The notes: a model not told the origin generated them from the letters alone. DNA of 64,000 nt from Desulfatiglans sp. (GCA_012513605.1 JAAZBV010000156.1:91270-155269), one strand, 5' to 3'. Positions 13,404-30,518 are shown, counted from the stretch's first letter. Numbers and translations are program-made.

Positions 13404-14051
13404 TTGCCACTTAAGGTTAATGAGATATTTTTAAGCGTACAGGGCGAATCCACAAGGTCAGGTTTTCCATGTGTGTTTATACGCCTTACAGGATGCAACC
13501 TTAGATGCTCATACTGTGATACCACCTATGCATATGAAGAGGGTGCCCTTATGGAGATCAGTGATATCATTGAAATGGTAAAGGGCTTTAACTGCCCGCT
13601 TGTTGAGGTAACCGGCGGAGAGCCACTGATACAGGATGAAACACCTGAACTCATAACAAAGCTTATTGATGACGGGTACACGGTGCTGCTTGAGACAAAC
13701 GGAAGTCAGGATATAAGCATGGTTGACAGGCGCTCTATAAAGATCATGGACATTAAATGCCCATCAAGTGGTGAAGAGAGTCATAATGATTTAAAGAACC
13801 TTAACGGGCTCAATGAGGGGGATGAACTCAAGTTTGTGATTGCTGACAAAAGAGACTATGATTTTGCAGTTGAGACCCTTGCCCTGATACCTTCTGATAA
13901 AAGGGACGATATATATGTGAATTTTTCTCCATGCTTTAGCAGGATTGAACCGAAGGAACTCTCTGAATGGATACTGAGGGATAAACTTAATGTAAGATTA
14001 AACATGCAGCTCCATAAGTATATATGGCCCCCAGATAAAAGGGGGGTGTGA
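13404..14051 (+). CDS. queE: 7-carboxy-7-deazaguanine synthase
   Basis: 215 aa with a TTG start. Has the QueE N-terminus EIFLSVQGES and radical SAM motif CNLRCSYCDT. Confidence 0.85.
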   Translation: MPLKVNEIFLSVQGESTRSGFPCVFIRLTGCNLRCSYCDTTYAYEEGALMEISDIIEMVKGFNCPLVEVTGGEPLIQDETPELITKLIDDGYTVLLETNGSQDISMVDRRSIKIMDIKCPSSGEESHNDLKNLNGLNEGDELKFVIADKRDYDFAVETLALIPSDKRDDIYVNFSPCFSRIEPKELSEWILRDKLNVRLNMQLHKYIWPPDKRGV

Positions 14052-14172: not shown

Positions 14173-14991
14173 ATGAATTTTATTTCTGATTTTAGGTGTC
14201 CACAGGAAATTAATCCTGATTCATACTGGTTTTTGATAAATGAGCAGAAGATTATTGTACTGTCAGAAAACGGTGCTATGTCTATCCCTCGTTACAATAC
14301 TCTTAAAGAATATGAGATAAGAAGTGACCATATCCAGTATATGGGCACCTATAACAACATTTCATGTTATGCTGCAGAGATTGAGTCCACGGAAGCTCTC
14401 CCCGGATGTCTCGTCGTACACCCGCCTCTTACCCTTCTGGACAGACTTGACTCAGACCTTGTAAGGCTTTCAGGGCTTGCAGGTCAGTTTATTACCTGGA
14501 GCAGGAATCACAGGTTTTGCGGAAAATGCGGAGGCTCAACAAAAGATAAAAATGATGAGCGTGCAAAGATATGTACCCCATGCGGTCAGGTATATTATCC
14601 GCGCCTTTCGCCTGCAATAATAGTGGCAGTTACAAAGGATGATAAACTTTTACTTGCGAGTTCTCCCAGATTCCGGTCAAAGTTCTACAGTGTGCTTGCA
14701 GGTTTTGTTGAACCCGGTGAAACCCTTGAGGGGTGTGTAAAAAGGGAGATCAAGGAAGAGGTGGGTATTGAGGTTAAAAATATTAAATATTTCGATAGCC
14801 AGCCCTGGCCCTTCCCTGATTCCCTCATGATAGGGTTTACAGCAGAGTATGATAGTGGCGAAATCAAGCCTGATAAAAAAGAGATTGTTGATGTTGGCTG
14901 GTTTAAAAGGGATGAAATCCCCGGAATCCCATCCAGTATAAGCATTGCCCGGAGGCTTATAGACTGGTTTATTGAAGGTGGAAACCATTAG
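14173..14991 (+). CDS. nudC: NAD(+) diphosphatase (NADH pyrophosphatase, Nudix)
   Basis: 272 aa with zinc ribbon CGKCG...CTPCG, Nudix box GFVEPGETLEGCVKREIKEEVGI, and the NudC-type SQPWPFP. Confidence 0.85.
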   Translation: MNFISDFRCPQEINPDSYWFLINEQKIIVLSENGAMSIPRYNTLKEYEIRSDHIQYMGTYNNISCYAAEIESTEALPGCLVVHPPLTLLDRLDSDLVRLSGLAGQFITWSRNHRFCGKCGGSTKDKNDERAKICTPCGQVYYPRLSPAIIVAVTKDDKLLLASSPRFRSKFYSVLAGFVEPGETLEGCVKREIKEEVGIEVKNIKYFDSQPWPFPDSLMIGFTAEYDSGEIKPDKKEIVDVGWFKRDEIPGIPSSISIARRLIDWFIEGGNH

Positions 14992-15016
14992 CAAAAATGG
15001 GAAAAATAATATTTTT

Positions 15017-15078
15017 ACCACGGAGAGCATGGAGAACACGGAGTAAAAATTGAAAGAACTCTATGTCTCCTCTGTGGT
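15017..15078. repeat. hairpin-forming short repeat of the ccacggagaacacggag type
   Basis: accacggagagcatggagaacacggag ... ctctatgtctcctctgtggt forms an imperfect inverted repeat. The same core recurs at 58794-58824 and 61503-61532. Confidence 0.7.
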
Positions 15079-15287
15079 CAGCGCTAACGATCTATTTTAT
15101 ACGTTATCGGATTTTTAGTCCAAAGTGCTAAGCATTTCATTATAATCACCTGAAAAACACAGATGTATTCTTTTTATAATATTTTTTATCTTTATCTGGA
15201 TTTGCCTGAAACCATCCTTATATTGGTGTAACAAAGGCGTTAAAGCGCCTGCAAATTCAAACCATATTTTCATCTGGAGGTTTGGGT

Positions 15288-16376
15288 ATGAAAATATCAA
15301 TATTGATAATACTGGCAGCTATTATAGTATCAGGCTCAGTTAAAATTTACTCCATTGCAGAGGAGGATGGTATGGGAAACATGAATGTAAAAACTGAGAC
15401 CGCAACAGTGGCTGGAGGGTGCTTCTGGTGTGTGGAATCAGACTTTAAAAATGTTGATGGGGTAATAGATGTTATCTCAGGGTATACCGGAGGTAAAAAG
15501 GAGAATCCTACCTATGAAGAGGTTTCGAGTGGTAAAACAGGGCATGTTGAGGCAGTTCAGGTGATATTTGATCCACAGAAGATAACATATGGTGAAATCC
15601 TCGATGTGTTCTGGAGACATATAGATCCAACCGATGCAGGAGGTCAGTTTGCAGACAGGGGGAGCCAGTACAAAAGCGCTATTTTTTATCACAATGATGA
15701 ACAGAAAAGGATTGCCCTTCAATCCAGGGAGAGACTTAATGGATCAGCCATCTTTGACAGGCCTATCGTAACTGAGATAATCAGGTTTGAAAAATTCTAT
15801 CCTGCTGAAGATTATCATCAGGATTATTCAGATAAGAACCCTGTAAGATATAAAAATTACAGGTATCATTCAGGAAGGGAGAGGTTTATTGAAGAGACAT
15901 GGAAAAATGATAAAGTTGAAAACACTACCTCTCAGTGTGATATCCCCGATGATGAGACTTTAAAAAAAAGGCTTACTGAACTCCAGTATGATGTAACCCG
16001 AAAGGGTGCTACAGAAAGACCTTTCCAAAATGAGTACTGGGATAATAAACGTGAGGGCATTTACGTAGATGTGGTTTCAGGGGAGCCCCTTTTCAGTTCA
16101 AAGGATAAGTATGATTCCGGTTCCGGCTGGCCCAGTTTCACAAGGCCCCTTGTAAAAGAGAATATCATAGAAAAGATCGATAAAGGTTTTTTCATGACAA
16201 GGACAGAGGTGAAGAGCAAAAAGGGTGATTCTCACCTGGGGCACCTGTTTGATGACGGGCCAAAACCCACTGGCCAAAGGTATTGTATAAACTCTGCTGC
16301 GCTCAGGTTTATACCGAAAGAGGAACTTGAAAAGGAGGGGTATGGGGAATATAAAAAACTTTTCCAGGAGAAATGA
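15288..16376 (+). CDS. msrAB: bifunctional methionine sulfoxide reductase MsrA/MsrB
   Basis: MsrA motif GGCFWC and MsrB motif RYCINS occur in one ORF with an N-terminal signal/anchor. GGAGG at 15276-15280 favours ATG 15288 over the track's TTG 15282. Confidence 0.9.
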
Positions 16377-16383
16377 TCAGTGA

Positions 16384-16800
16384 TCATTGTAACGCTGGAA
16401 TCCCCGGCCTCACCTTTATAACCATCTCCTTTTTGATGGTAACAGTACCCGGCTTTGCACCCTTTGGCTTTGAGACATATTTTGCCATTGTGCAGGAGAC
16501 AGGAGTGATTCCGCCATTTTTTGCCTTGCTGTGCCAGGCGGCAATGGCGGCTGCCTCCTTCAGTATGTCCTTTCCCGGTTCTTCATTCTCTTTTGCCCTT
16601 AAAATTACATGGCTCCCCGGCATGCCTTTTACATGAAACCAGTAGTCATTGGGGTGAGTAAGCCTCAGGCTCAGGTAATCATTATCATCATCCGTTTTAC
16701 CTGCCAGGACTTCCCAGTCACCGGCAATTTTGTATTCAATAATATTGTGTTTTTCTTTATCAATCATATTGGTATTTACCAGGGTCTTTATGGGTAACAA
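16384..16800 (-). CDS. DUF814 / NFACT-R domain protein
   Basis: 138 aa with the motif WFHVKGMPGSHVIL typical of DUF814. The start may be the internal Met (MIDKEK...). Confidence 0.7.
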   Translation of the reverse strand: MLPIKTLVNTNMIDKEKHNIIEYKIAGDWEVLAGKTDDDNDYLSLRLTHPNDYWFHVKGMPGSHVILRAKENEEPGKDILKEAAAIAAWHSKAKNGGITPVSCTMAKYVSKPKGAKPGTVTIKKEMVIKVRPGIPALQ

Positions 16801-16979: not shown

Positions 16980-18320
16980 ATGAAGATTAAGATAGCTCTG
17001 GTATCAATTGTTTTTGTCATGATTTTGAGCATGCCTTATGGTCAGGTAGGCGCCTCGGATTACAACAGCAACTGGCCCACATGGAGGGGCCCCCTGTTTA
17101 CCGGCGAGGTGGTAAAAGGTAACCCTCCTACAATCTGGAGCGAGACAAAGAATATCAAATGGAAAATACCCTTACCAGGAAAGGGCCTATCCACTCCGAT
17201 AGTATGGGGAGATCAGATATTCCTGACCTCTGCCATACCTCTTGATAAAAAGGCGTCTGAAGAAACCCTTGCAAAACTTAAGGAGGGGCAGGCATCTTGG
17301 ATGCAGCCCAAACTGCCCGAATATCTCCAGCAGTTTGTGGTCTATTCCATTGATAAAAACACCGGGAAAACTCTCTGGCAAAAGGTTGTACGCGAGCAGT
17401 TTCCCCATGAAGGCACCCATAATGATGGTAGCTGGGCCTCACAATCATGTGTGACTGATGGGGAATATCTTGTTGCATCATTTGGTTCTTTTGGAATTTA
17501 CTGTTTTGATCTCAAAGGTAATCTGAAATGGGAGAAGGACATTGGAGATCTGAATATCCGGGCCTCTTTCGGGGAAGGTAGTTCTCCTGCCCTGTATAAT
17601 GATTATCTGATCGTAAACTGGGATCATGAAAAGGATTCCTATATATATGTCCTTAATAAGAAAGATGGCGAGGTTATATGGAAAAAGAAGAGGGATGAGA
17701 AGACCTCATGGTCTACACCCATCGTTGTCCCGGTAAAGGGAAAGCTTCAGCTGATTGTAAGCGCCACTGGAAAATCAACCGCCTATGACCTGCAAAATGG
17801 AGATATCATTTGGGTAATATCAGGTATGACCGAAAATGTGATCCCATCACCTGTTACTGACGGTGAACTTGTTCACCTGATTAGCGGTTTCAGGGGCGCT
17901 GCAATGCAGACAATCAGGCTGGATGAGGCAAGCGGGGATCTGAAAGAGTCATCCGCATTAGTCTGGACATATAACAAAAATACCCCGTATGTCCCTTCAG
18001 CGCTTCTCTACAATGGCAGGCTCTATTATCTGCGCGGAAATGATGAAAGGCTGAGCTGTGTAGATGCTAAAACCGGAAAGATATTTTATGAGGCTGTTAA
18101 GCTTGATGGAATGAAAGGTGTGTATGCTTCACCCATTGGTGTTAACGGCCTTGTTTATGTGCTGGGCAGGAATGGAATGTGTTATGTTATAAAGGATGGA
18201 GAAGAGTTGAATGTTGTTTCCAGAAACCAGCTTGATGACAATTTTGATGCCAGCCCTGTTGTTGTTGGGAATCAATTGTTTTTGAGGGGTTTGAAGGCTC
18301 TTTACTGTATTTCGGAGTGA
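16980..18320 (+). CDS. secreted PQQ-like (BamB-like) beta-propeller repeat protein
   Basis: 446 aa with a signal peptide. The NWPTWRGP segment after the signal is typical of this family, followed by repeated W/G blade motifs. Confidence 0.75.
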   Translation: MKIKIALVSIVFVMILSMPYGQVGASDYNSNWPTWRGPLFTGEVVKGNPPTIWSETKNIKWKIPLPGKGLSTPIVWGDQIFLTSAIPLDKKASEETLAKLKEGQASWMQPKLPEYLQQFVVYSIDKNTGKTLWQKVVREQFPHEGTHNDGSWASQSCVTDGEYLVASFGSFGIYCFDLKGNLKWEKDIGDLNIRASFGEGSSPALYNDYLIVNWDHEKDSYIYVLNKKDGEVIWKKKRDEKTSWSTPIVVPVKGKLQLIVSATGKSTAYDLQNGDIIWVISGMTENVIPSPVTDGELVHLISGFRGAAMQTIRLDEASGDLKESSALVWTYNKNTPYVPSALLYNGRLYYLRGNDERLSCVDAKTGKIFYEAVKLDGMKGVYASPIGVNGLVYVLGRNGMCYVIKDGEELNVVSRNQLDDNFDASPVVVGNQLFLRGLKALYCISE

Positions 18321-18329
18321 TTTTTAAAT

Positions 18330-18555
18330 TGGCATGGCGCATAGAGCATAGCGCATGGAGTAAGTATAAAAAATTGGTTTTGATATTGCCCTATGCTCTT
18401 TGCCCCCTATGCGCTATGTTTTCCTGTATGTTGTAGGGGTAACCCCCTGCCTGCCCCTACACTTATTTCCAGAATCATTCAATTCGCCCTGCGCCTTGAG
18501 CCATTCCTCTCTTTCTAACCCTCGAACCCTGGAATCCTTGACCCCTTGAACCCTT
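18330..18555. repeat. mosaic of short dispersed low-complexity repeats
   Basis: gcgcatagagcatagcgcat pairs with ctatgctct..ctatgcgc as an inverted pair. A tgtagggg...cccctaca hairpin follows. The cgccctgcgccttgagcc / ctcgaaccctggaatccttgaccccttgaaccc motifs are related to 14061-14096, 27955-27970 and 59319-59345. Confidence 0.7.
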
Positions 18556-19816
18556 ACTTTAAAACCACACACTTCATCTGCTTCTGATCCCTGATCAAAA
18601 GCTTCCCGTCACTTAATGCCAAAGGCGCCCATGCCTGTTTTGTGTCAAGCAGTTCTGCCTTTGCCTGCACCCTGAATTCATCAGGAGTTGGCTCAATAAG
18701 ATAGAGCATCTTTTCACCATCACTGCTTAAAATAATGTCATCAGCTAGAATGAATCCGCCCTTGTCAAAATTAGGGTCTTTCCCTGTCTTCCATTTGATG
18801 TTGCCCTTAAGGTCCATACACATGAAGCCATTTCTCACCTGATTATTTGTGCCTTGGCTATAAAGATGCCCTTTGTAAAATATAGCGGGGTGCACATGGG
18901 AAGCGAACTCCTTTGAAAACATCACCTCATTTACTTCCCATGAATTCTCCTTCTTATTTAACTGTATAAGCGCCCCTCCAGATAGATACCCTCCTGTGAT
19001 AAACAGGCTGTTATCGCCCGTCTCTGTTACATTAGGCACAGGGGTCTTGCATTTCCAGCCATCATAAGACCATAAAAGCTTGCCTGTATCAGGGTTAAAC
19101 CCCATGACAGCCCCGGTGCCCCCACCTTCAGGCCTGGTGGCTGATATCATCACCAGATGATCTTCATTATCCATTTTGACCACCTTTGGTGAGACATATC
19201 CGGGGCTCCCTGGAAGGACCGGTGTCTTCCAGATAATCTCTCCATTTATCTTGTCATATGCCACAATGCCGACCACCTCTGTCTGAGGGGCAATAATCAC
19301 CATGTTTTTATAAACAAGGGGGTTCTGGGCAATCGCCCACATGGGGATGTCTGTTTTACTGAAATCTGTCCAGAAGTTCTTTTTCCATAAAGGTTTACGG
19401 GTGTCTTTATCAACACAGAGGAAATTGCCGAATGCATCACTTACATAAATTCTGCTACCATCTATTGTTGGTACTGTCCTTGAACCGTCATAGCTGACTG
19501 ACCATTTTGCCTCACTGCTGAATTGCCATTCTTCTTTTCCGGTAATAAGGTCAAAACAGCGTAAAACATTCTCTCTGTCATCAACCCTGTCATATATGTA
19601 GACCTTACCTTTACTAACAGCAGGCCCTCCGAAACCCTCACCGAGTGGAACTGTCCATAAAATCTTTGCCCCCCCTGCGGGCCATTGCCTTAAAAGCCCC
19701 TTTTCATCAGATACTGCATCCCGGTCAGGTCCAAGGTACTGTGGCCAGTCAGATGCCTGGGTTTTGCAGATATTAAAAAGGAAAAGAATAATAAGAATCA
19801 TTTCTGTAATCTTCAT
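18554..19816 (-). CDS. secreted PQQ-like (BamB-like) beta-propeller repeat protein
   Basis: The ORF track gives 18554..19849. ATG 19816 (MKITEMILIILF...) has an AGGAAGG RBS and starts a signal peptide. It has the DWPQYLGP segment and repeated blades. Confidence 0.75.
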   Translation of the reverse strand: MKITEMILIILFLFNICKTQASDWPQYLGPDRDAVSDEKGLLRQWPAGGAKILWTVPLGEGFGGPAVSKGKVYIYDRVDDRENVLRCFDLITGKEEWQFSSEAKWSVSYDGSRTVPTIDGSRIYVSDAFGNFLCVDKDTRKPLWKKNFWTDFSKTDIPMWAIAQNPLVYKNMVIIAPQTEVVGIVAYDKINGEIIWKTPVLPGSPGYVSPKVVKMDNEDHLVMISATRPEGGGTGAVMGFNPDTGKLLWSYDGWKCKTPVPNVTETGDNSLFITGGYLSGGALIQLNKKENSWEVNEVMFSKEFASHVHPAIFYKGHLYSQGTNNQVRNGFMCMDLKGNIKWKTGKDPNFDKGGFILADDIILSSDGEKMLYLIEPTPDEFRVQAKAELLDTKQAWAPLALSDGKLLIRDQKQMKCVVLK

Positions 19817-20237
19817 ATCAATACCTTCCTGAATATAGAGATTGTACATAGTCTGATCTGATATAAATTTTTTAAAAAGTCAATAGTTCTTAAATGTAAT
19901 AAAAAGTGCAATTATAAGGTGTATTTTTATAGACAAATTAACTGGAAAATATGAAAAAGAATACGATAAAAGAAGTAGTTAGAGAGTGTCAAGAATTTAT
20001 TTTTTACAAAAAACAAGTGGTGTCTGTTGTCAGGTTTATTAAGTAAATATTAAATAAAATTAATATAATCAGTATATTGAAGAGTATTTGCATTTTAATT
20101 GTAATAACCTTTAACTAGAATAGCCCTTTAAAAATCCATGTGCATTATTTTCTAAAAAAAATTATTGTAAGACTGGTATAAGAAATGCAAATGGTCAGGT
20201 TCAGCAGGAAAATACTAAAATAACAGGAGCGAAGAAT

Positions 20238-21126: not shown

Positions 21127-22926
21127 TTATGCATCTTTATTCAATAATACCGCTCTTATTTTTTGTAATGCAGACAAGGAAAAGATAAGGGGATAAAGTT
21201 TTTCATGATACCATAGCCTTGCAAAATAAAGGCCTATAGGGCTTGAAGGCAGTTTGTCATGGTTATTAATCATTTCAAGCAATGCTTCTGATCCTTTTAA
21301 AAGTGCCTTTTGAACTGGCGCGGCTAAATTATCAAAGAAACCATGAAGAGCCGCACAGCCTGCAATGGCATCAAGGGCAAGGGAGGTCTCCTCAATTGTG
21401 GCAGGCGCATTCTTATCTCCTCCCCATGTGCCATTTTCTTTTTGTGCCTCAATCAGCCATTTAAGTCCGCTCTTAAGCGATTCTTTCATGGTTGAAAGTT
21501 CAGTGGATTTCATACGGGTTAAATGAGAAATTACCTTTGCTGTCCCATAAACAGGGTTCTTCATATCGTGAACATCTTCGTTACCAAACCACAAAGGTAC
21601 CCATGAACCATCAGGCCGCTGAGCATTTCGTAAAAACAGGAAACCCTTTTCCATGGCAGAGTTAATACTATTTTGCAGTTCAGGCCTCATATCAGGCATC
21701 CATGCGGAACATGCTGCAAGTGCATGGGCGGTAAGGTCTGTAGCGCTTTTATCAAAGGGTAATTTACCCCAGCCTTTGCAGAATGTGGGTATGCCTCCAT
21801 CACGGTTCTGCAGATTAATAAGCCAGAGGATGGCCGCCTCAACCGCATCAAGGGGCTTTTCGCCATCCGGGTCAAGATTCTTTATGGCCATAAGGGCTCC
21901 TGAAGTATCATCCGCATCAGGCACGCCCCCTGGGAGATCAGTCCATGCCCAGCCTCCGGGGTCTGCCCCGGTATACGGGTGAATCTCCCTGTGCTGCTGG
22001 CCTATAAGCCATGTAAAAATGAGGTTTTGCTGAGTTTTACTTATATTATCATTCTTTAACGCCTGTACAGCCATTGTGGAAACCCAGGTTGATAGATTTG
22101 TATCTATCGGCCAGCTTCCGTCTGTTCGCTGGCTGTGAAGCAAAAAATTAACCCCTTTTTTTGTAACAATGTGTTCCCTGTGTCCGCAGTTTGCAAGGCT
22201 CATCAGAACAAAGCTTGTCAAAGGAGTGGCCTCCAGAAAACCTCCATTTTCAGGCTGGATTTTTGTCAGGACTTTAAGGGATTTTGTACGTGCCAGTTTA
22301 CGGGCTATCTTTTGAACCGGGTTAACAGGGGGATGATGATGAAATACGACCTGCCCGATTGCGATAAGGGCGGGAAGGGCGTAGCTTACAACCGGCAGCT
22401 TAAGCCATTTGAACCACTGCTGGGGCAGGACAGCCAGTTCAAATGGGAGACCCTTAACATGTTTCCAGCCCTCCTTACCCAGTCTGCCCGCAAGGGCACA
22501 CATGGTGAGAATAGGGCATGAAAATGTCCTGTCAGCTCCATAGGCCGTTAAGATTGATCCGGCAATCTTTTCCGGATCAATAGAACCTGCGATACCTTTT
22601 ATATATTTTTCACAGGCATCAAGGGCCTCCTGATCCGGTGAGGTAACTGTCATGGCGCAGTAAACAAGAAGGGTAGTGCTGAGGTTGCTCTTGCTTATTG
22701 CTGTATCGCCCCATCCACCATCAGGACTCTGATTTTTTATGAGCCAGTTTATGCCGGAGTTAATAGATGAAGCATGTTGATTTTCATCCACAGAAGCCAG
22801 CGCAAAAACAGCAGTTGCAGTGGAAAGGGCACTGCTGCTTAACTCACCGGTCCAGTAACCTTTGTCATTAGTTTCCGTGTGTAGCATCTGCTGCAATCTG
22901 TTAATAGTAGATTCAATCTCTTTCAT
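21127..22926 (-). CDS. squalene-hopene-cyclase-like class II terpene cyclase
   Basis: 599 aa with the N-terminal GYWTGEL. QW-type repeats are QSPDGGWG, QRTDGSWP, QNRDGGIP, QRPDGSWV and QKENGTWG. The protonation motif GGWAWTDLPGGVPDADDTS (D-A-D-D is encoded at 21907-21918) parallels the SHC DxDDTA motif. Confidence 0.8.
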   Translation of the reverse strand: MKEIESTINRLQQMLHTETNDKGYWTGELSSSALSTATAVFALASVDENQHASSINSGINWLIKNQSPDGGWGDTAISKSNLSTTLLVYCAMTVTSPDQEALDACEKYIKGIAGSIDPEKIAGSILTAYGADRTFSCPILTMCALAGRLGKEGWKHVKGLPFELAVLPQQWFKWLKLPVVSYALPALIAIGQVVFHHHPPVNPVQKIARKLARTKSLKVLTKIQPENGGFLEATPLTSFVLMSLANCGHREHIVTKKGVNFLLHSQRTDGSWPIDTNLSTWVSTMAVQALKNDNISKTQQNLIFTWLIGQQHREIHPYTGADPGGWAWTDLPGGVPDADDTSGALMAIKNLDPDGEKPLDAVEAAILWLINLQNRDGGIPTFCKGWGKLPFDKSATDLTAHALAACSAWMPDMRPELQNSINSAMEKGFLFLRNAQRPDGSWVPLWFGNEDVHDMKNPVYGTAKVISHLTRMKSTELSTMKESLKSGLKWLIEAQKENGTWGGDKNAPATIEETSLALDAIAGCAALHGFFDNLAAPVQKALLKGSEALLEMINNHDKLPSSPIGLYFARLWYHEKLYPLIFSLSALQKIRAVLLNKDA

Positions 22927-23828
22927 GGAATCTCCGCAAGATAGCCAAGGGCGAGGAGCCCGTAATAGGTGTACTCACAGTCAATAACAGGGTCTGCCCA
23001 TGTCCCGCTGAAGCCGCCCTCTGGGTTCCAGAGCGTGTCAAGAAACTCAAGGTGGCCCTCCCTAATGATCTTATTTTCAGGGAAGTAGGAAATGGCCTGA
23101 AGGGCAGTGGCAGTGCTTAAGAGATCAGGCAGATTCATTGGGCTGTCACTCTTAAAGGCGCAGAAGCCCCCCCTCTCACTTGCCCTGCCCATAAGCCATT
23201 CAGCCCCCCTTTCAGGTAAAGGCCTCCCAAGCATATGATATGAGCATATGGCCGCGGCTGTTGAGGGGGTGGTTGATATGCCCCCTGCCTGTTCATTGGC
23301 AAAGCCGCCGTCATCCATTTCAAGTTTATCAAGGCAGTTTAAAATTGCATCAGGGTCAGGAGGCGCAACACCCATATCCTCGCACATGGTAAGGGCCATA
23401 AAACAGCCATAGGCATTACCATGCGCATCTGACTGATTAGCGCTGAAACTGCCATCCGCACATCTGAGTTCTACAAGCCTTTGGGTAAGCCCCTCCTTTA
23501 GACCGGAATCAATAGTAAAGGATGATATGTCAGCCAGATTTGTATATGAGCGGGCAAGGCATGAAAGATGAACCAGGTCAAGCCCATGCCCGCTCTCAAA
23601 GCCAGCCAGATATCTTTTTATAAGATCAACAGGGAGGGAGAGCTCAAGGCTGATGGCCAGTTCAATGCCAAATACGGTATAGTAAAGGTCGCTCTTATTA
23701 TCGCGGCCCATGAATCCGCCATCGTGGTCCAGATGCCTCAATACAAAACCGCTGACAAGCCCTGTGGATTTATCCAGCAGCAGAGGCGCCCTGCCCAGGG
23801 CCTGTATCATCTCCTGTCTGAGTGTCAT
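22923..23828 (-). CDS. prenyltransferase/squalene-oxidase-repeat protein (single alpha/alpha toroid)
   Basis: 301 aa with five evenly spaced repeats: HDGGFMG, ADGSFSA, DDGGFAN, ERGGFCA and PEGGFSG. These resemble prenyltransferase beta subunits. ATGA overlap with the downstream cyclase gene. Confidence 0.7.
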   Translation of the reverse strand: MTLRQEMIQALGRAPLLLDKSTGLVSGFVLRHLDHDGGFMGRDNKSDLYYTVFGIELAISLELSLPVDLIKRYLAGFESGHGLDLVHLSCLARSYTNLADISSFTIDSGLKEGLTQRLVELRCADGSFSANQSDAHGNAYGCFMALTMCEDMGVAPPDPDAILNCLDKLEMDDGGFANEQAGGISTTPSTAAAICSYHMLGRPLPERGAEWLMGRASERGGFCAFKSDSPMNLPDLLSTATALQAISYFPENKIIREGHLEFLDTLWNPEGGFSGTWADPVIDCEYTYYGLLALGYLAEIP

Positions 23829-25479
23829 TGCAGCATCCCATTAAATCAAAGTCGCCAAATATCTTGCTGATCACGCGGCGCAAAAGCCCCTTAAGTGCAG
23901 GGTTATTAAGCTGCGCCAGGCTCTCAATTGCCCTTGCCTTTGTGCTATCCATCAATGCCCGCGCACATTGATCAATATTAAGATCGCTGAAGATCTCCAT
24001 GATATGATCAAACTCTCTCTCCCTTACGCCTGGCTCCTGCCATGCCCTTAAGAGCAGTTGACGCGCCTCCTCTTTTGCCTGTTCTGTTGCAAGGGCCATG
24101 AGTATGCTAGGGTTGTCAAGCAGGCGGCGCCTCTTTTCATGGGGGAGAAGGTAATCCTCCAGGTCATCCCTGATCTGGTAGGCTACACCCATTGCCTCGC
24201 TGTATTGATGAAGGCAGGCCAGCACAGAACTGTCCGCCCCTGCAAGGAGCGCCCCAAGGGAGAGCGCAACATCAAAGGCAGGGGATGTCTTTCTCCTGAA
24301 TATCTCGATCACCTGATTGGATGTGAGAGATTCAGGATGCCTTGACCAGTAGAGCTCCTCACCCTGCCCAAGGCACATGATGCGATGCGCATGGGCAGCA
24401 CATTCAATCAGAGAGGCCTTCACCTGCGCAGCCACATCCAACTCTGAGAGGAGCTGATATCCCCAGCCAATAAGTAGATCCCCTGCATTAAGCGCAACAG
24501 GGATGCCATATCTTGCATGAAGGGTCTCCTGCCCGTATCGAATATCATCATTATCCTCTATATCATCATGGATAAGAGATGCCTTGTGAAAGCATTCCAC
24601 TGCGACACATATACGCCTGATATTATTGTCGGAGATGTTATTGCCCGGTGTCAGGGCTGTAAATGTGCATGACGCAAGAAAGGGACGCCATCTTTTCCCT
24701 GACAGGGCAATCCAATCCATTGCAATGGCCTCTGTCTGCGTGCCTTCGGGCCTGATAACCTCATCAAGCTCCTCCTTTGAAAACCAGGAATCAACACGGT
24801 TTCTCTCCTCTTCAAGGTTCAGCCGCGGGATTGAGGGGTTTTCAGATGTTTCATACAATGCCTCCCATAGCCAGTCTGTATCAATAGCTGTGTTTTCACA
24901 CCCGTCATAGAGCAGGGGGATAGCTATACCGGGTACAGCGCCTGCCTCCATGTATGGAAAGACCCTTTCAAGTGTGGAGAGGCAGCTTACACCCAGAATT
25001 GCCTCAATCTGGCGTGTCTCTATCAGGCTCATTACAACCGGCGAACCCTCTGCAATGAGCACCGCATACCCCAGCTCCTCTGCCTGCCTTTTAAGGTCAT
25101 TTATTATGCATGATCCGCAGTGGGCGCAGATGAGCCCGATCTCATCCATAATGCCCCTGCACTTTTCCGCTGAACGCAGACACTTTGGTACCAACAGCAG
25201 GCGCCTGTTATAGGGGATGGCAGTAAAGATATCATGCCACAGGGTATTATTGATGAGCACAGCTACAAAACCCCTGAACCTTGCGGGCCATTTATACTGG
25301 TTCAGTAATATTTCTGCATGTCTCTCAAGTTCAGCAATACCAAGAGGCGCACAGAGAGAGTTTGACTCAGCATAATCCCTGACTATCCGGCGCAGCTCTT
25401 CCCTTTCCCTAAGGGTGCAGGGGATATCCGCCTGGGGCGGACGGGCATTATATATCAATGCAAGGTTAAGGTCGCTCAT
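23770..25479 (-). CDS. DUF116-like Cys-rich domain fused to a trans-polyprenyl diphosphate synthase
   Basis: 569 aa. The N-terminal half has LLLVPKCLRSAEKCRG...GLICAHCGSC...LIAEGSPVV...ILGVSCLSTL, a DUF116-like pattern recalled from memory. The C-terminal half has GKRWRP, first Asp-rich motif LIHDDIEDNDDIRYG (DDIED at 24553-24567), and second motif QIRDDLEDY. Confidence 0.75.
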   Translation of the reverse strand: MSDLNLALIYNARPPQADIPCTLREREELRRIVRDYAESNSLCAPLGIAELERHAEILLNQYKWPARFRGFVAVLINNTLWHDIFTAIPYNRRLLLVPKCLRSAEKCRGIMDEIGLICAHCGSCIINDLKRQAEELGYAVLIAEGSPVVMSLIETRQIEAILGVSCLSTLERVFPYMEAGAVPGIAIPLLYDGCENTAIDTDWLWEALYETSENPSIPRLNLEEERNRVDSWFSKEELDEVIRPEGTQTEAIAMDWIALSGKRWRPFLASCTFTALTPGNNISDNNIRRICVAVECFHKASLIHDDIEDNDDIRYGQETLHARYGIPVALNAGDLLIGWGYQLLSELDVAAQVKASLIECAAHAHRIMCLGQGEELYWSRHPESLTSNQVIEIFRRKTSPAFDVALSLGALLAGADSSVLACLHQYSEAMGVAYQIRDDLEDYLLPHEKRRRLLDNPSILMALATEQAKEEARQLLLRAWQEPGVREREFDHIMEIFSDLNIDQCARALMDSTKARAIESLAQLNNPALKGLLRRVISKIFGDFDLMGCCNDTQTGDDTGPGQGASAAG

Positions 25480-27047
25480 CTCTTTTTCTCCGTTGCGCTG
25501 TACGCGGAAATCGTTGCTGACCCTGATAATCTCTTTGACATGCCCCGAAAGGTCATGCGCCAGTTAAAGATCTCTGCCCTGCCCATCACCTGCATTATCA
25601 TACGTTTAAGCCAGGGCACACCTCCTGCCTGCTGGTTGTCCCACATGAGTTTGGGGACACGTTTAAAATTGATCTCATAACAGGTGCGATAGAGTTCAAA
25701 ATGGCTCATGCTCATACTCGAAACAGAAAAACCGCCACCTGCCCTGATATCCTTTTCAAGCACAGGCTCATAGAATACAGGGAAGACAACAAGCTCCTGA
25801 GAGGAGAGCTCTTTAATGAGACTGAGGGTATCTATCACATCCTTAGGCTCCTCACCGGGCAGGCCCAGGACAATGCTGATTACCGGGAAGAACCCGGAGC
25901 GGGTCATCCTGCCTACTGCCTCCCTTATAATGTCAGGCCAGTCTTCAGATGAAAATGGCGCAATCTTACCGGGGCTGTTGGCAGCAACAAGCCTTCCATT
26001 GGCGCTTTCAGCCCCCATGTTTACCCATAGGTATTTTGCCGGTTTTTCCCAGGTCAATAGCCGCCGGATCTCCACAAGCTCCTTTTCCTCAAGATCAATA
26101 ACGCTTGTGATATTGGCGTGATCTATCTGCATGAATGATAGCCCTTTAAGCCCTCTCATCTGTTCAAGGAGGGATGCAAGCCTTTTAAAATCAGGCCTTG
26201 TTGTGGATGAGCCATACCTGAAAAAATCTTCGCTCCCGCTCACCACATTTTTTATTCCATTGGAAAGGTTTGTCTCGAGGTCTGCCATGATCATATCAGG
26301 GGAAAGGTGTTTCATCCCCTTCTGGGCCATGCTGCAAAACCTGCATCCCCTTCCGCATCCCCTTGAAAGCTCAATAATACCCATCATTGAGGGGCCACAA
26401 ATGGGCTGAACGCGCTCGATGCCAATCCCATTTACAGCAACATAATTATCTACATGCCTGCCCGCTAAAATGTCAGCAATAAGCTCAGGGCCAGATTCTT
26501 CGAAATAGCCCTCATATACCACATCAATGCCAAGACGGGCCGCTTCATCCGGGCTGGTTATAAATTGCCATGCGCCTGCCCCTCCGAACACCACCTTGAA
26601 GGGGTATTTTTTTTTGGCAGCCTTGAGCATGAGGAGCGTCTCTCTTGTCCATCTCCTGGTATAGAGTTCCCCTCCCCAGAAGCTGCTTGTGGTGGTATTG
26701 CTCATGCCATGACCAAGAGGGTCGCTGGAGCTGAAGAGCACAAGCTTTACCCATGGCCCAATAAGGTCAAAAAGCCGCTCAGGTGTGGTGCAGACTATAT
26801 CATCAGGAGAGAGACCTGATGCGGCCCTCATGCATGATTCAATGCGGCGCAGCCCCAGGGGAGCAACAGAGGCCCTGCCATTTTCATCAGTATGCACCTT
26901 TGGGCTTAGAAAATATCTCATAAGGGGTTCAGGCACCTTGCTTGTCTGCATGGTTGCAAAGATGCCCTCAAACAATACTGGGTAATTGGCGCTTAGTGTG
27001 CGGTCAGCCACCAGTATAACGGCAGGTCTTAAGAAGTTATTTTTCAT
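25476..27047 (-). CDS. radical SAM protein with N-terminal B12-binding-like domain (class-B-like)
   Basis: The track ORF runs to 27119. ATG 27047 (MKNNFLRPAVILVADR...) has a GGAGATCAGG RBS. The N-terminal VILVADR...APLGL layout resembles B12-domain rSAMs. The Fe-S triad is CGRGCRFC (26334-26357). Confidence 0.75.
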   Translation of the reverse strand: MKNNFLRPAVILVADRTLSANYPVLFEGIFATMQTSKVPEPLMRYFLSPKVHTDENGRASVAPLGLRRIESCMRAASGLSPDDIVCTTPERLFDLIGPWVKLVLFSSSDPLGHGMSNTTTSSFWGGELYTRRWTRETLLMLKAAKKKYPFKVVFGGAGAWQFITSPDEAARLGIDVVYEGYFEESGPELIADILAGRHVDNYVAVNGIGIERVQPICGPSMMGIIELSRGCGRGCRFCSMAQKGMKHLSPDMIMADLETNLSNGIKNVVSGSEDFFRYGSSTTRPDFKRLASLLEQMRGLKGLSFMQIDHANITSVIDLEEKELVEIRRLLTWEKPAKYLWVNMGAESANGRLVAANSPGKIAPFSSEDWPDIIREAVGRMTRSGFFPVISIVLGLPGEEPKDVIDTLSLIKELSSQELVVFPVFYEPVLEKDIRAGGGFSVSSMSMSHFELYRTCYEINFKRVPKLMWDNQQAGGVPWLKRMIMQVMGRAEIFNWRMTFRGMSKRLSGSATISAYSATEKKR

Positions 27048-27936
27048 CCTGATCTCCGGCCTTAAAGGCCCTTTTTTGTATCCGGGACAGGTCTGATGGT
27101 GAGAGTCCTTCCAGCACACTCATCGGGATATCAAGCCTTTTGTGAAGCGCCTCCAGCATATTAACCGGCTTGCGCGGCTCAGCGGAAAAGAGCCCGCCCT
27201 GCCTGCCGCGGTTTCTCAGCATGGAGTGGATGTCTGTTCCATTCAGAAGATCCAGCCTTACAGGAGGTGCCTGGATTTTTGATTCATCTATTTCGTCACC
27301 ATTAAATGGTGGCTGATTCAGTTTAGGAAATATAATGGCCCTGCCAGGGCATATACGGGCGCATGCGGCACAGTTGTTTTTACAGTTGTCAGGGTGGGAA
27401 ACCCTGATATTGGCCTCTTCATCAATGGTGTAGACACCAAAAAGACAGAAATTAAAACAGAGTTTACATTTCTGGCAGCGGCCCCGATCAATTACCGGGA
27501 ACCATGGCTCCTGTAAACCGCTGAATGCTATCTTCTCAGGAGTGCCTCCTGAACCTCCTGTTACCTCACTTGTGACCCTTGACATGATCTCTTCAGGAGG
27601 CATGACCCGCGGGTTGAGGATTATGATTTGACTGCCGGGTGAAGACTCTGCCTCTGCCATGCTGAACAGGGCCTGTATGGCCCTCTCATAACAGGCAATA
27701 ACAATAAGTTTACTGTATTGCACCCACGCCTTTAACAGCGGGTCATTATGCGAGACAAGCCCGCACAGGTCATCAACAATAACCGCATCATGGCCATGTT
27801 GTTCAAGACTTTTAAGCAGCATATCACGGGATTCATCAGAGACCAAATCCCTGTGGGTACATTTGCAGTAAACTATCATATTATTTTCAGCCATATAACT
27901 TCCAAAAATATTAAGCTGTTTTTTTGTCTGTTTCAT
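27037..27936 (-). CDS. 4Fe-4S dicluster domain protein (ferredoxin-like)
   Basis: 299 aa with Cys motifs CQKCKLCFNFC and CKNNCAACARICP and an extra Cys-containing N-terminal domain. An alternative start MAENN at 27894 has GGAAG upstream. The stop overlaps the rSAM start by 11 nt. Confidence 0.7.
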   Translation of the reverse strand: MKQTKKQLNIFGSYMAENNMIVYCKCTHRDLVSDESRDMLLKSLEQHGHDAVIVDDLCGLVSHNDPLLKAWVQYSKLIVIACYERAIQALFSMAEAESSPGSQIIILNPRVMPPEEIMSRVTSEVTGGSGGTPEKIAFSGLQEPWFPVIDRGRCQKCKLCFNFCLFGVYTIDEEANIRVSHPDNCKNNCAACARICPGRAIIFPKLNQPPFNGDEIDESKIQAPPVRLDLLNGTDIHSMLRNRGRQGGLFSAEPRKPVNMLEALHKRLDIPMSVLEGLSPSDLSRIQKRAFKAGDQDEK

Positions 27937-28421
27937 AAAATAATTAAGACATTACCTTGAGCCTTGCGCCATTAATTATCTAAATATTCAATGTGGAAAC
28001 ACAACTGATGCGCAGCATGTAATGCTCAAATATAAACATGATATATTTTAATGCATTATATAGCCAATTAAAGGATAGTCAATCTATGTTGATGCCTATC
28101 CCTTGAATCCTGTTTATTCCCATATCCTTTCTCTCACTATTAGACTTTTGACTCTCTTTCTTTCTCTCCTCTTTTCCCCCCTTGCTTTTTTAAATAGTTC
28201 ATCTTAAACCCAGCTTTTTTATTAGTTTGGGTGCAATGTATTATTGTATCTTTTCAATCTCGGGGAGTTAACTTATAATTGTTTATGGTTCATGCATTTG
28301 TGTATTAAAAAGATGAAAACGGGTATGATGTATACCTTCACCGCCCGGAAGAGCCATGCCGGAAATTTTTTGGGGCTCCAAAGGCCAAGGCTAATGATGA
28401 TTAAATATAAGGAGAACTATT

Positions 28422-30518
28422 ATGGCGACACCAGGGTTTGGAGGAAAGTTACTCTTAGTTAATCTTACCAATAAACAGATAACTGCACTGGACACAGAAA
28501 AATATGAGCAGTTCGGCGGCGGGCATGGAATGGCCACTGCACTTTTCTGGGATTATTGTGTGGCGCCCGGAGACTGGGATCTGCAGGATGCCTTTCACCC
28601 GAAAAACATGGTTGCCCTTGTAACCGGCCCGGTAAGCGGGACAGGAGTGCCGTGGGCAGCAAGGACAAGTGTTTCAGGGTTGTCACCGCAGTGTTATCCC
28701 ATACAGTGGTTCGGTCATAGCAATTTCGGCGGCATGTTCGGGGCCTTTATGAAAATGGCCGGCTGGGATGGTGTTGCGGTCATTGGCAGGGCAGAATCCC
28801 CTGTCTATATCAATGTGGTAGATGACAGGGTCACCATTGAAGATGCTAAAGAGCTCTGGGGTTTAACCACATGGGAGTGCCAGGAGGAGATATGGAAGAG
28901 ATCCGGCATCAGGTATGGTAAGGAGTGGCAGGGGGTTGAAGAGAGGTATACACTACAGAGACCTGCTATAGTAACCATAGGCCCTGCTGGCGAAAACATG
29001 ACCAGGGTAGCATCACTTGTCCACGGAGGCGGAAGCGGTGCAGGGCAGGGAGGTTTCGGCGGGGTATTTGGCTCCAAAAATCTCAAGGCAATCGCCTTTC
29101 TTGGAACAAAGGGGATAAAGATAGCTGATCCAAAAGTATTGCTGGATGTAAGAGACTGGTATTACCAGAATTGGCCGGCAGGGGCACCCCCTTTTGCAGG
29201 GCAGGGTGTATCATCAGCGTGTATTGGCTGCGGACAGGTAAGAAAGTGTCATAACCGGGACAGGATTCATGGCAAGGATTCGGATGGTTGCGCTGAGGCA
29301 GGATGGTTCTACCTTACACCCCAGGATGCAAATGGGATGGACGATGCAACAAAGTTCAGGATAAACGCTAAAGGCACTGACATAGTCCAGCAGCTTGGTA
29401 TAAACGGCATGGAAACCTGTTTCATGGGCCCCCTGACATTTAAAACTGATCATAATCCCGATTTTCCAATTCAGCCGGAGGTGCCCGCCTATACGGCCCT
29501 TGGCTGGTACATGAAGAGGATGTATGACATGGGTGTTATAGGCCCAGGCACAAAATATGATACTGCCCCTCTGAATTTTAAAAAGTTTGCCACTCAGGAG
29601 TTCATGGAGATCTACGGCATTGCCCTGGCAAACCGTTATGGAATAGGTGACCTGTTGGCCGAGGGAACCGCGCGCATGGCGGATATACTTGGACGAAAGG
29701 ATGATTTTAATACACTTGCCAGACTTACCAACTGGGGTTATGTGGATCACTGGTCCATGCCCGGAGTAGACTGGGCCTATGGTAACCTGATGGATTCAAG
29801 GGACATCAACAGCCATGATATAGACCTGGCAAACCCTGCTGTAGGTCTGATGGGTTTTGGGGGCGGCGGCAACAGCAAATGGTCATGCGAGGAGTTTGTA
29901 AAGATCCATGCAGAGCGAACCACGCGCAACAACCCCTACTGGTTTGATTTCAGCTGGGAGGGTAAACAGGCACATGATACCGGTGTCTTTTCAAGGCACA
30001 AGGCGGAATTTGTCGCATGGCGCATGCATTACTGGACCTATTACAAGGAATCTGTCGGATTCTGTGACTGGGGTTATACAAAGCTCTTTGATGCAAACCA
30101 CCCGAAAGGCTATGGCTATACCCCTGAGGCTGAACCTCGCTGGCTAAACGCAATCACCGGAAGAAAACACACCTTTGAGGATGGGCTTGAAATGGGAAGA
30201 CGCGCCTGGAATCTGAAACGTGCAATCTTTGCCCTTCAGGGCAGGCACAGAAAGATGGAAAAATTTAACGGTTACATGTACAGACCCGGGGCGTCCTATT
30301 GCGGATTTTACAACACGAAGCCAATATACGATGGAAAAAACTGGGAATGGAAGGACTGCAAGGAGCTTTACCTGACTGAAGAGGGTGTGGAAAAGTGGAA
30401 GAGCTATTTCTATGAGATAGAAGGCTGGGACAAGGATTCGGGATATCCGAAGAGGAAAACCCTGGAAAAGCTTGGTCTGAAATATGCTGCTGATCTGCTT
30501 TCTAAAAAACTTGTTTAA
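28422..30518 (+). CDS. aldehyde:ferredoxin oxidoreductase (AOR) family tungsten/molybdopterin protein
   Basis: 698 aa with an AOR-type N-terminus GKLLLVNLTNKQI...FGGGHGMA and large C-terminal domains. Cys cluster CIGCGQVRKC. RBS AAGGAGAA. Confidence 0.7.
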   Translation: MATPGFGGKLLLVNLTNKQITALDTEKYEQFGGGHGMATALFWDYCVAPGDWDLQDAFHPKNMVALVTGPVSGTGVPWAARTSVSGLSPQCYPIQWFGHSNFGGMFGAFMKMAGWDGVAVIGRAESPVYINVVDDRVTIEDAKELWGLTTWECQEEIWKRSGIRYGKEWQGVEERYTLQRPAIVTIGPAGENMTRVASLVHGGGSGAGQGGFGGVFGSKNLKAIAFLGTKGIKIADPKVLLDVRDWYYQNWPAGAPPFAGQGVSSACIGCGQVRKCHNRDRIHGKDSDGCAEAGWFYLTPQDANGMDDATKFRINAKGTDIVQQLGINGMETCFMGPLTFKTDHNPDFPIQPEVPAYTALGWYMKRMYDMGVIGPGTKYDTAPLNFKKFATQEFMEIYGIALANRYGIGDLLAEGTARMADILGRKDDFNTLARLTNWGYVDHWSMPGVDWAYGNLMDSRDINSHDIDLANPAVGLMGFGGGGNSKWSCEEFVKIHAERTTRNNPYWFDFSWEGKQAHDTGVFSRHKAEFVAWRMHYWTYYKESVGFCDWGYTKLFDANHPKGYGYTPEAEPRWLNAITGRKHTFEDGLEMGRRAWNLKRAIFALQGRHRKMEKFNGYMYRPGASYCGFYNTKPIYDGKNWEWKDCKELYLTEEGVEKWKSYFYEIEGWDKDSGYPKRKTLEKLGLKYAADLLSKKLV

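Follow-up and report, generated by a model that had tools for sequence, protein, structure and literature searches.

A radical SAM enzyme gene overlapping that of a 2×[4Fe-4S] ferredoxin-like protein in a putative terpenoid operon of anaerobic bacteria

B12-type radical S-adenosylmethionine (SAM) enzymes can introduce methyl groups, rings or double bonds into isoprenoid lipids (PMC13459092; 10.1101/2025.10.20.683597). In the hopanoid pathway, the radical SAM enzymes HpnH, HpnP, HpnR and HpnJ stand beside a class II cyclase of the squalene-hopene cyclase (SHC) fold and genes for isoprenoid supply, and a polycyclic terpenoid is tailored independently of oxygen; the archaeal enzymes GrsA/B, the Gmm and glycerol dialkyl glycerol tetraether (GDGT) methylases and Ted, which have a cobalamin-type architecture, act on unactivated carbons of isoprenoid chains under anoxic conditions. 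Analysis of a stretch of 64,000 nucleotides (nt) from Desulfatiglans sp. (GCA_012513605.1 JAAZBV010000156.1:91270-155269; the window) by open reading frame (ORF) scan revealed an operon of five overlapping genes on the minus strand, encoding, in this order, a ferredoxin-like protein, a radical SAM enzyme, a prenyl diphosphate synthase, an alpha-alpha-toroid protein and a class II terpene cyclase (Table 1). The Pfam families detected on this cassette are Radical_SAM, Fer4, DUF116 together with polyprenyl_synt, Prenyltrans, and SQHop_cyclase N and C. Together, the products of the first two genes probably act as a radical enzyme of two components and modify a non-hopanoid isoprenoid made by the three genes that follow; no description of the five-gene cassette was found in the papers searched.

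Gene overlaps and conservation of the cassette

The stop codon (TAA) of the ferredoxin-like ORF, at 27039-27037, lies inside the reading frame of the radical SAM gene, the ATG of which (27047-27045) has a GGAG 9 nt upstream. A preliminary description, made by a model from the DNA alone, had placed this stop 11 nt inside the radical SAM gene and had the radical SAM stop overlapping the synthase start; the junction sequences bear out both, the latter as an ATGA at 25479-25476, and the former overlap recurs at 65 of the 78 loci compared, its length being 8, 11 or 4 nt at 53 of them. Judged from sequence, such an overlap indicates translational coupling of the two genes. The remaining junctions overlap as well, by 59 nt (synthase and toroid genes) and 4 nt (toroid and cyclase genes). 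The radical SAM start at 27047 was preferred over a GTG at 27119 because an identical 523-residue database protein exists (from a Desulfatiglans metagenome-assembled genome (MAG), 100% identity over 100% of the length), and the probable start of the ferredoxin-like gene, as annotated in the public record, is M15.

Regarding distribution, relatives of the radical SAM enzyme were detected in 193 species in a survey of one genome per species, and the best 80, examined by taxon, belong mainly to Phycisphaerae lineages (Sedimentisphaerales, Anaerohalosphaeraceae), the remaining carriers among them being five Desulfobacterota, two Acidobacteriota and two Ca. Uabimicrobium genomes. The gene order ferredoxin-radical SAM-synthase-toroid-cyclase is kept at about 80 loci of Desulfobacterota, Planctomycetota (including Anaerobaca lacustris and Ca. 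Uabimicrobium) and Acidobacteriota, and in essentially every locus with enough flanking DNA. A profile search with the radical SAM enzyme against 1.84 billion cluster representatives returned 191 relatives at E<=1e-30, and those scoring 380-490 bits have a second arrangement, ferredoxin-radical SAM-cyclase-synthase-(propeller)-toroid, carried by one Armatimonadota MAG and otherwise by unassigned metagenome contigs. The gene set survives this reshuffling without loss, which argues for a functional link between the genes. More distant relatives sit in other contexts, one of about 255 bits in an archaeal-looking housekeeping context and another in an unrelated one, and the terpenoid link is therefore a property of the radical SAM clade of the cassette rather than of the wider superfamily.

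The placement of the pair within a terpenoid operon, proposed in the preliminary description, thus holds across phyla and in two gene orders. Of the two observations that this description counted against a terpenoid role, unrelated function of the closest characterised relatives was indeed found (see below), while synteny away from terpenoid genes was not, the relatives down to about 380 bits always being accompanied by such genes. On gene content, the cassette appears to be an uncharacterised five-gene terpenoid operon of anaerobic bacteria from at least four phyla.

Components of the cassette

Hundreds of homologs of the radical SAM enzyme, including proteins from other phyla, have 55-76% identity, and 188 of the 523 positions are invariant in the homolog alignment. 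PF04055 is the sole Pfam family on the protein, with 43 bits against a cut-off of 29.5. Five cysteines are invariant in 35 sequences, namely the CX3CX2C triad, C86 and C456; cysteines of a SPASM or other auxiliary cluster are absent from this alignment, and there is no SPASM match in Pfam. Tes, Gms and Mss differ in this respect, as their C-terminus is extended by a SPASM-type part that holds auxiliary [4Fe-4S] clusters (PMC13459092), and the suggested kinship with enzymes forming carbon-carbon bonds in tetraethers is not borne out.

An AlphaFold (AF2) model of the radical SAM enzyme (predicted local distance difference test (pLDDT) 81) consists of an N-terminal alpha/beta domain, the barrel of radical SAM enzymes and a helical C-terminal part. 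Foldseek matched it to MgmA (1.6e-13), MtaB/RimO/MiaB (about 1e-11), AprD4 (1e-10) and TsrM (7e-10), so that the B12-domain-like character first ascribed to the enzyme stands at the level of fold, in the form of an N-terminal Rossmann domain; NCBI names the homologs B12-binding-domain radical SAM proteins. MgmA, the glutamine C-methyltransferase of methyl-coenzyme M reductase (MCR) (TIGR04014, PDB 9ccb), is the best fold match, with template modelling (TM) scores of 0.51/0.62 and the same domain order, but it shares about 14% identity, its model scores 20 against a cut-off of 360, and it methylates a protein. The best PDB sequence matches are MiaB, RimO and MtaB (RimO, 6e-06), which have a similar three-layer build with an N-terminal flavodoxin-like domain followed by the barrel, whereas the cassette enzyme has neither the N-terminal three-cysteine cluster nor the TRAM domain and scores 35 bits on TIGR00089 (cut-off 251). 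In the profile search of PDB sequences, its conserved GGAGAW strand-loop aligns to the cluster-cysteine segment of MiaB, with GAG in place of GC.

Among curated hidden Markov models (HMMs), the best is TIGR04013, the MJ_1487 family, yet with 71 bits against a cut-off of 251, followed by the methylthiotransferase and MgmA models; distant relatives give the same pattern, with 48-89 bits on TIGR04013. The function of MJ_1487 is itself only predicted (PMC11742838). Hopanoid enzymes were represented by TIGR04367 for HpnR and by the set PF02310+PF04055+PF13282 for HpnP, as in 10.1101/2025.07.29.667474. The HpnR, HpnJ and HpnH models had no match to the radical SAM enzyme at E<=0.01 in the curated-HMM scan, PF13282 is absent from the family even at E<=10, PF02310 stays below threshold, and one distant relative reaches 25 bits on the HpnR model (cut-off 650); the kinship with the hopanoid methylases HpnP and HpnR that had been put forward is thus not upheld. 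By these models, the enzyme fits no curated family. The cassette resembles the hopanoid system in its combination of a radical SAM gene, an SHC-fold cyclase and isoprenoid supply, and differs further from it in a cyclase far below the hopene-cyclase cut-off, a prenyl diphosphate synthase where hopanoid operons have squalene synthase genes, and a dedicated, translationally coupled ferredoxin.

Regarding the partner protein, its description as a dedicated 2×[4Fe-4S] protein is confirmed by the eight cysteines of the two cluster motifs, which are invariant among 36 homologs; Fer4 families match all 36, the window protein itself lying slightly under the Pfam cut-off (24.7 vs 25.5). The extra cysteine-containing N-terminal domain noticed in the preliminary description is equally real, with C10 and C12 (CxC), C44 (DLC) and C68 (ACxxR) invariant in the same homologs, which also have a conserved C-terminal helix in common. 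This domain is confidently predicted to be flavodoxin-like, with the cysteines at strand ends. Pfam at E<=10 finds only Fer4 families on the partner and nothing on the N-terminal domain, a profile search of the domain against PDB sequences gave zero matches, and the Foldseek matches (best E 0.01) were all to flavodoxin and Rossmann folds of a generic kind. From the alignments, the universal feature of the partner is the 2×[4Fe-4S] domain, and the four-cysteine flavodoxin-like domain appears to be new and specific to this operon type. A methylthiotransferase-type auxiliary-cluster domain acting in trans, considered in view of a similar cysteine spacing at strand ends, found no support, and the cysteines are also not universal.

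Regarding the three following genes, the synthase (PF00348, 145 bits) conserves HDDIED and AYQI.DD..D, the first and second Asp-rich motifs (FARM, SARM), in 74 orthologs, and is fused in all loci to DUF116, in which seven cysteines are conserved in the ortholog alignment. According to a published prediction, DUF116 is a flavodoxin-like domain for electron transfer, and Pirellula is on record as having it fused to a polyprenyl synthetase (PMC5898192). Short-chain synthases are the best matches of the synthase in PDB and NCBIfam. Small residues precede the first Asp-rich motif, a likeness to medium- or long-chain enzymes. A conserved 'GCC(D/N)D' motif with a CC pair occurs about 20 residues before the synthase C-terminus (window 23770-23840), and the variable tail beyond it overlaps the toroid gene start by 38-59 nt in several genomes.

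Conserved cysteines or histidines (Zn ligands) and a DxDD are lacking from the toroid protein in 71 orthologs, and it has no PDB sequence match; with neither the zinc site (Asp, Cys, His) nor an alpha-subunit gene present, it does not qualify as the beta subunit of a protein prenyltransferase. The cyclase has the beta-gamma toroid domains (PF13243, 121 bits; PF13249, 71 bits) and the motif VPDaDDT (DxDD; VPDADDT in the window), conserved in 65 orthologs, while its 109 bits on the hopene-cyclase model TIGR01507 (cut-off 431) set it apart from squalene-hopene cyclase proper; its best PDB match spans residues 209-505 only. Judged by taxon, length and divergence, it looks like a member of the published "SHC-like" group, the function of which is still unknown and for which a precursor other than squalene was suggested earlier (PMC7306690, PMC12414744). 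In the sesquarterpene pathway of Bacillus (HepS/HepT, YtpB, SqhC), a prenyl diphosphate synthase likewise feeds a non-squalene substrate to an SHC-fold cyclase. The cassette differs in that no YtpB homolog was seen, its synthase is fused to the cysteine-rich DUF116, the toroid, radical SAM and ferredoxin genes are added, and its hosts are anaerobic Gram-negative lineages. A paper on the thallusin ebo operon proved unrelated.

Proposed reaction and alternative explanations

The conserved coupling, together with a gene set that survives rearrangement, argues that the radical SAM enzyme and the ferredoxin-like protein act on the isoprenoid of the neighbouring genes. The two proteins would be made in fixed proportion and would form a complex, while the DUF116-fused synthase would supply an all-trans prenyl diphosphate and the SHC-like cyclase, through its DxDD motif, would protonate the terminal double bond to give a polycyclic skeleton other than a hopanoid. 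The catalytic motifs are intact, and the radical SAM enzyme would cleave SAM reductively at its single CX3CX2C cluster; the resulting 5'-deoxyadenosyl radical would then functionalise, oxygen-free, an unactivated C-H of the prenyl chain or of the cyclised product. The 2×[4Fe-4S] partner would carry electrons to (or from) the enzyme and, in many genomes, may itself be fed from NAD(P)H by a NuoE/F-like flavoprotein. Compared by description only, the chemistries of the archaeal lipid enzymes (methylation, ring closure and desaturation) match the plausible range for the cassette enzyme, which differs in being bacterial and in having as presumed substrate a free or cyclised polyprenyl and not a glycerol tetraether. 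C-methylation may tentatively be named as the likeliest single reaction, ranked first because of the cobalamin-type architecture, with desaturation or radical ring closure next.

Several observations weigh against this reading. The architecture of the enzyme is of the cobalamin type in the fold model, while cobalamin binding itself is only predicted; PF02310 is found below threshold in 3 of 35 family members (best E 0.14, Pfam at E<=10), and the family falls below the Pfam B12 threshold where the archaeal lipid enzymes are reported as clear B12 radical SAM enzymes; on the supporting side, PF02310 is precomputed for 3 of 120 second-order relatives. As AprD4 illustrates, a B12-type domain can be without cobalamin, and fold alone is insufficient. 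The closest characterised relatives (MgmA, RimO/MiaB, AprD4, TsrM) modify protein, tRNA or antibiotics, not lipids. Neither the second operon type nor Uabimicrobium has the four-cysteine domain in its partner protein, and this domain is therefore not essential to the core mechanism. The Ca. Uabimicrobium cassette keeps the ferredoxin-radical SAM-synthase-toroid core without a class II cyclase, so that the substrate may be a linear prenyl chain or precursor rather than a cyclised product. This reading also assigns no role to DUF116 or to the 301-residue toroid protein.

An oxidative variant, in which the enzyme would remove two hydrogens for a desaturation (as Ted) or a radical ring closure (as GrsA/B) and the coupled ferredoxin would stand in trans for auxiliary clusters, returning the substrate-radical electron to the radical SAM cluster, is unlikely. 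It would suit an enzyme without auxiliary-cluster cysteines of its own whose coupled partner bears two [4Fe-4S] clusters and, in this operon type, a four-cysteine site, and B12-type desaturases and ring-forming enzymes acting on isoprenoid chains are documented (10.1101/2025.10.20.683597; PMC13459092); however, a ferredoxin in the operon is equally expected for simple reductive activation, and the four-cysteine site is not universal.

It is also unlikely that the radical SAM enzyme, its partner and DUF116 modify the prenyl diphosphate or C5 units before cyclisation, giving non-canonical chain lengths for whichever cyclase is present. The cyclase-free cassette of Uabimicrobium would be accounted for in this way, as would the fusion of the redox-type DUF116 to the synthase in all loci. 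In Ca. Uabimicrobium amorphum (locus L075 of the survey, 14291-16403, minus strand), two adjacent ORFs of 323 and 356 residues near the cassette have DDxxD and NxxxTxxxE-like motifs, one of them with a weak Terpene_syn_C_2 match (E 0.026), and may be class I terpene synthases in place of the cyclase, but this match is below threshold; moreover, the known prenyl-diphosphate methyltransferases are ordinary SAM enzymes.

Carbon-carbon cross-linking, the second possibility raised in the preliminary description, by which the pair would join two isoprenoid chains or chain ends, as do Tes, Gms and Mss, into a longer or bridged substrate, is very unlikely. Hydrogen abstraction from an sp3 carbon is possible in principle in this isoprenoid gene context, and the cyclase resembles the SHC-like group proposed to take a non-squalene precursor (PMC7306690). 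Tes, Gms and Mss, however, are described as belonging to the SPASM type, with two auxiliary clusters to which stabilisation of the first substrate radical is ascribed (PMC13459092), and it is the lack of such clusters from the cassette enzyme, which beyond the SAM-cluster cysteines has C86 and C456 only and no SPASM domain, that makes a Tes-like coupling improbable; no sequence similarity to the coupling families surfaced in the curated-HMM scans.

A protein or RNA target, for instance the secreted propeller or the CC tail of the synthase, modified in the manner of a methylthiotransferase or MgmA with the toroid as protein prenyltransferase, is highly improbable since the enzyme lacks the hallmarks of a methylthiotransferase (the three cluster cysteines at the N-terminus, the third position being GAG and not GC, the TRAM domain, and a methylthiotransferase model score of 35 bits vs 251), and, although RimO, MiaB, MtaB and MgmA are among the best PDB sequence and fold matches, the toroid matches Prenyltrans, the CC motif is conserved near the synthase C-terminus and a propeller gene is linked in most loci, the toroid is without conserved Cys/His for Zn, no alpha subunit is encoded, and propellers with signal peptides leave the cytoplasm and hence the cytoplasmic enzymes.

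Genomic context and significance

Genes for PQQ_2/BamB-like beta-propellers recur with the cassette across phyla (for example at loci L002, L009, L085, L087 and L092). In most loci with sufficient flanking sequence they immediately precede the ferredoxin gene, and in the second type they are found inside the operon (at L087 between synthase and toroid). The propellers carry signal peptides, and a role in periplasmic lipid handling or as a carrier is only a guess. In 11 Phycisphaerae loci (for example L009, 12243-13718), the synthase gene is separated from the toroid gene by an inserted gene for an MFS_3 (EntS-like secretion) transporter, which hints at export of the product. Genes encoding ABC_tran and a large FtsX permease were found near the cassette at L003, L085 and L087, and a GT4 glycosyltransferase gene adjoins it in Armatimonadota and Desulfatiglans loci (L092, 14913-16193; L003, 3627-4925; L006, 3985-5283); from this gene content, the cassette product may be glycosylated and extruded. 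A fused NuoE/F-like flavoprotein (2Fe-2S_thioredx, Complex1_51K, NADH_4Fe-4S, Fer4) and a GltD/NfnB-like protein are encoded upstream on the same strand in 13 loci (for example L060, 72-2423, and L040, 3947-5518), with a similar NuoE/F-like protein beside the Armatimonadota cassette (L092, 1-1325), and these proteins could form a dedicated route for electrons from NAD(P)H to ferredoxin. A 313-residue ORF without a Pfam match is inserted between the radical SAM and synthase genes at L063 (10522-11463), and also at L064 and L065; it combines hydrophobic segments with a CxxC...CxxC motif of zinc-ribbon-like type at the N-terminus.

In the window, the genes flanking the cassette are unrelated and of housekeeping type. 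The sigma-70-like promoter candidate, a consensus match only, sits about 120-160 nt upstream of the first gene of the cassette. The cassette is a compositional island, with a GC content of 0.491 vs 0.405 across the remaining window; taken together with a divergent aldehyde:ferredoxin oxidoreductase gene (21127-30518), the region has a GC content of 0.49 and a GC content at third codon positions (GC3) of about 0.50-0.54, compared with 0.405 and 0.33-0.46 elsewhere. This composition suggests horizontal acquisition of the region, possibly from a higher-GC donor lineage such as Planctomycetota. The aldehyde:ferredoxin oxidoreductase gene (28422-30518) and an ORF of 217 residues were rejected as members of the cassette because their adjacency is not kept at other loci. 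A second, small radical SAM protein of 215 residues and activating-enzyme type (13404-14051, plus strand; Radical_SAM and Fer4_12), unrelated to the cassette, is encoded between an epimerase/dehydratase gene and a NUDIX gene.

Table 1. Positions of the cassette, its parts and associated features in the window
Feature	Position	Strand	Basis or remark
Ferredoxin-like partner protein	27037..27936	(-)	ORF of 299 aa (amino acids); likely start M15 at 27894, giving 285 aa
Ferredoxin stop / radical SAM start overlap, 11 nt	27037..27047	(-)	Junction sequence
Radical SAM enzyme, 523 aa, uncharacterised subfamily	25476..27047	(-)	Pfam, curated HMMs, homologs, fold model
ATGA overlap, radical SAM stop / synthase start, 4 nt	25476..25479	(-)	Radical SAM TGA 25478-25476, synthase ATG 25479-25477
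DUF116–trans-prenyl diphosphate synthase fusion	23770..25479	(-)	Pfam, curated HMMs, ortholog alignment
Alpha-alpha-toroid (Prenyltrans) protein, 301 aa	22923..23828	(-)	Pfam, ortholog alignment
SHC-like class II terpene cyclase, 599 aa	21127..22926	(-)	Pfam, curated HMMs, ortholog alignment
CX3CX2C radical SAM cluster motif (C231, C235, C238)	26334..26357	(-)	Invariant in 35 sequences
Radical SAM N-terminal Rossmann-like domain (B12-binding-like, also methylthiotransferase-N-like)	26403..27047	(-)	Fold; without cluster cysteines
Partner 2×[4Fe-4S] ferredoxin domain, C140/143/146/150 and C171/175/178/182	27319..27513	(-)	Motifs CX2CX2CX3C and CX3CX2CX3CP
Partner N-terminal flavodoxin-like domain, four invariant Cys	27559..27894	(-)	Alignment and predicted structure
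Sigma-70-like promoter candidate, TTGACT-16-TATAAT	28055..28082	(-)	11/12 consensus matches
Secreted PQQ_2/BamB-like beta-propeller	18554..19849	(-)	Family linked to the cassette at related loci
Second PQQ_2/BamB-like beta-propeller paralog	16980..18320	(+)	Same family as the propeller at 18554..19849

Thus, in these anaerobic lineages, a cyclase of SHC-like appearance is locked to four partners: a dedicated synthase fused to DUF116, a toroid protein, a radical SAM enzyme whose subfamily is uncurated, and a ferredoxin of that enzyme's own. Beyond the probable tailoring of a non-hopanoid isoprenoid by the coupled pair, there is a slim chance that the cassette as a whole is a pathway for undescribed polycyclic terpenoid lipids, possibly glycosylated and exported, made from regular prenyl diphosphates instead of squalene by anaerobic sediment bacteria (Desulfatiglandales, Sedimentisphaerales, Anaerohalosphaeraceae), in which a cobalamin-type radical SAM enzyme borrows accessory iron-sulfur clusters from a separate, translationally coupled partner as a split two-protein radical enzyme. 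The SHC-like cyclases of Planctomycetota and related phyla have been discussed as a possible source of unassigned fossil terpanes (PMC7306690, PMC12414744), and the cassette, if this is true, would become a candidate origin in living organisms for orphan geolipids, for instance the tricyclic terpanes ascribed to a hypothetical 'tricyclohexaprenol'. What results is a concrete set of genes that can be cloned, and three carriers in culture or co-culture (Anaerobaca lacustris, Anaerohalosphaeraceae strain U12dextr and Ca. Uabimicrobium amorphum) in which to look for the product. If the radical SAM enzyme methylates, desaturates or ring-closes a terpenoid under anoxic conditions, the radical SAM chemistry known from two kinds of lipid, archaeal tetraethers and the hopanoids, would gain a new class of lipids in bacteria, which may aid the interpretation of biomarkers.

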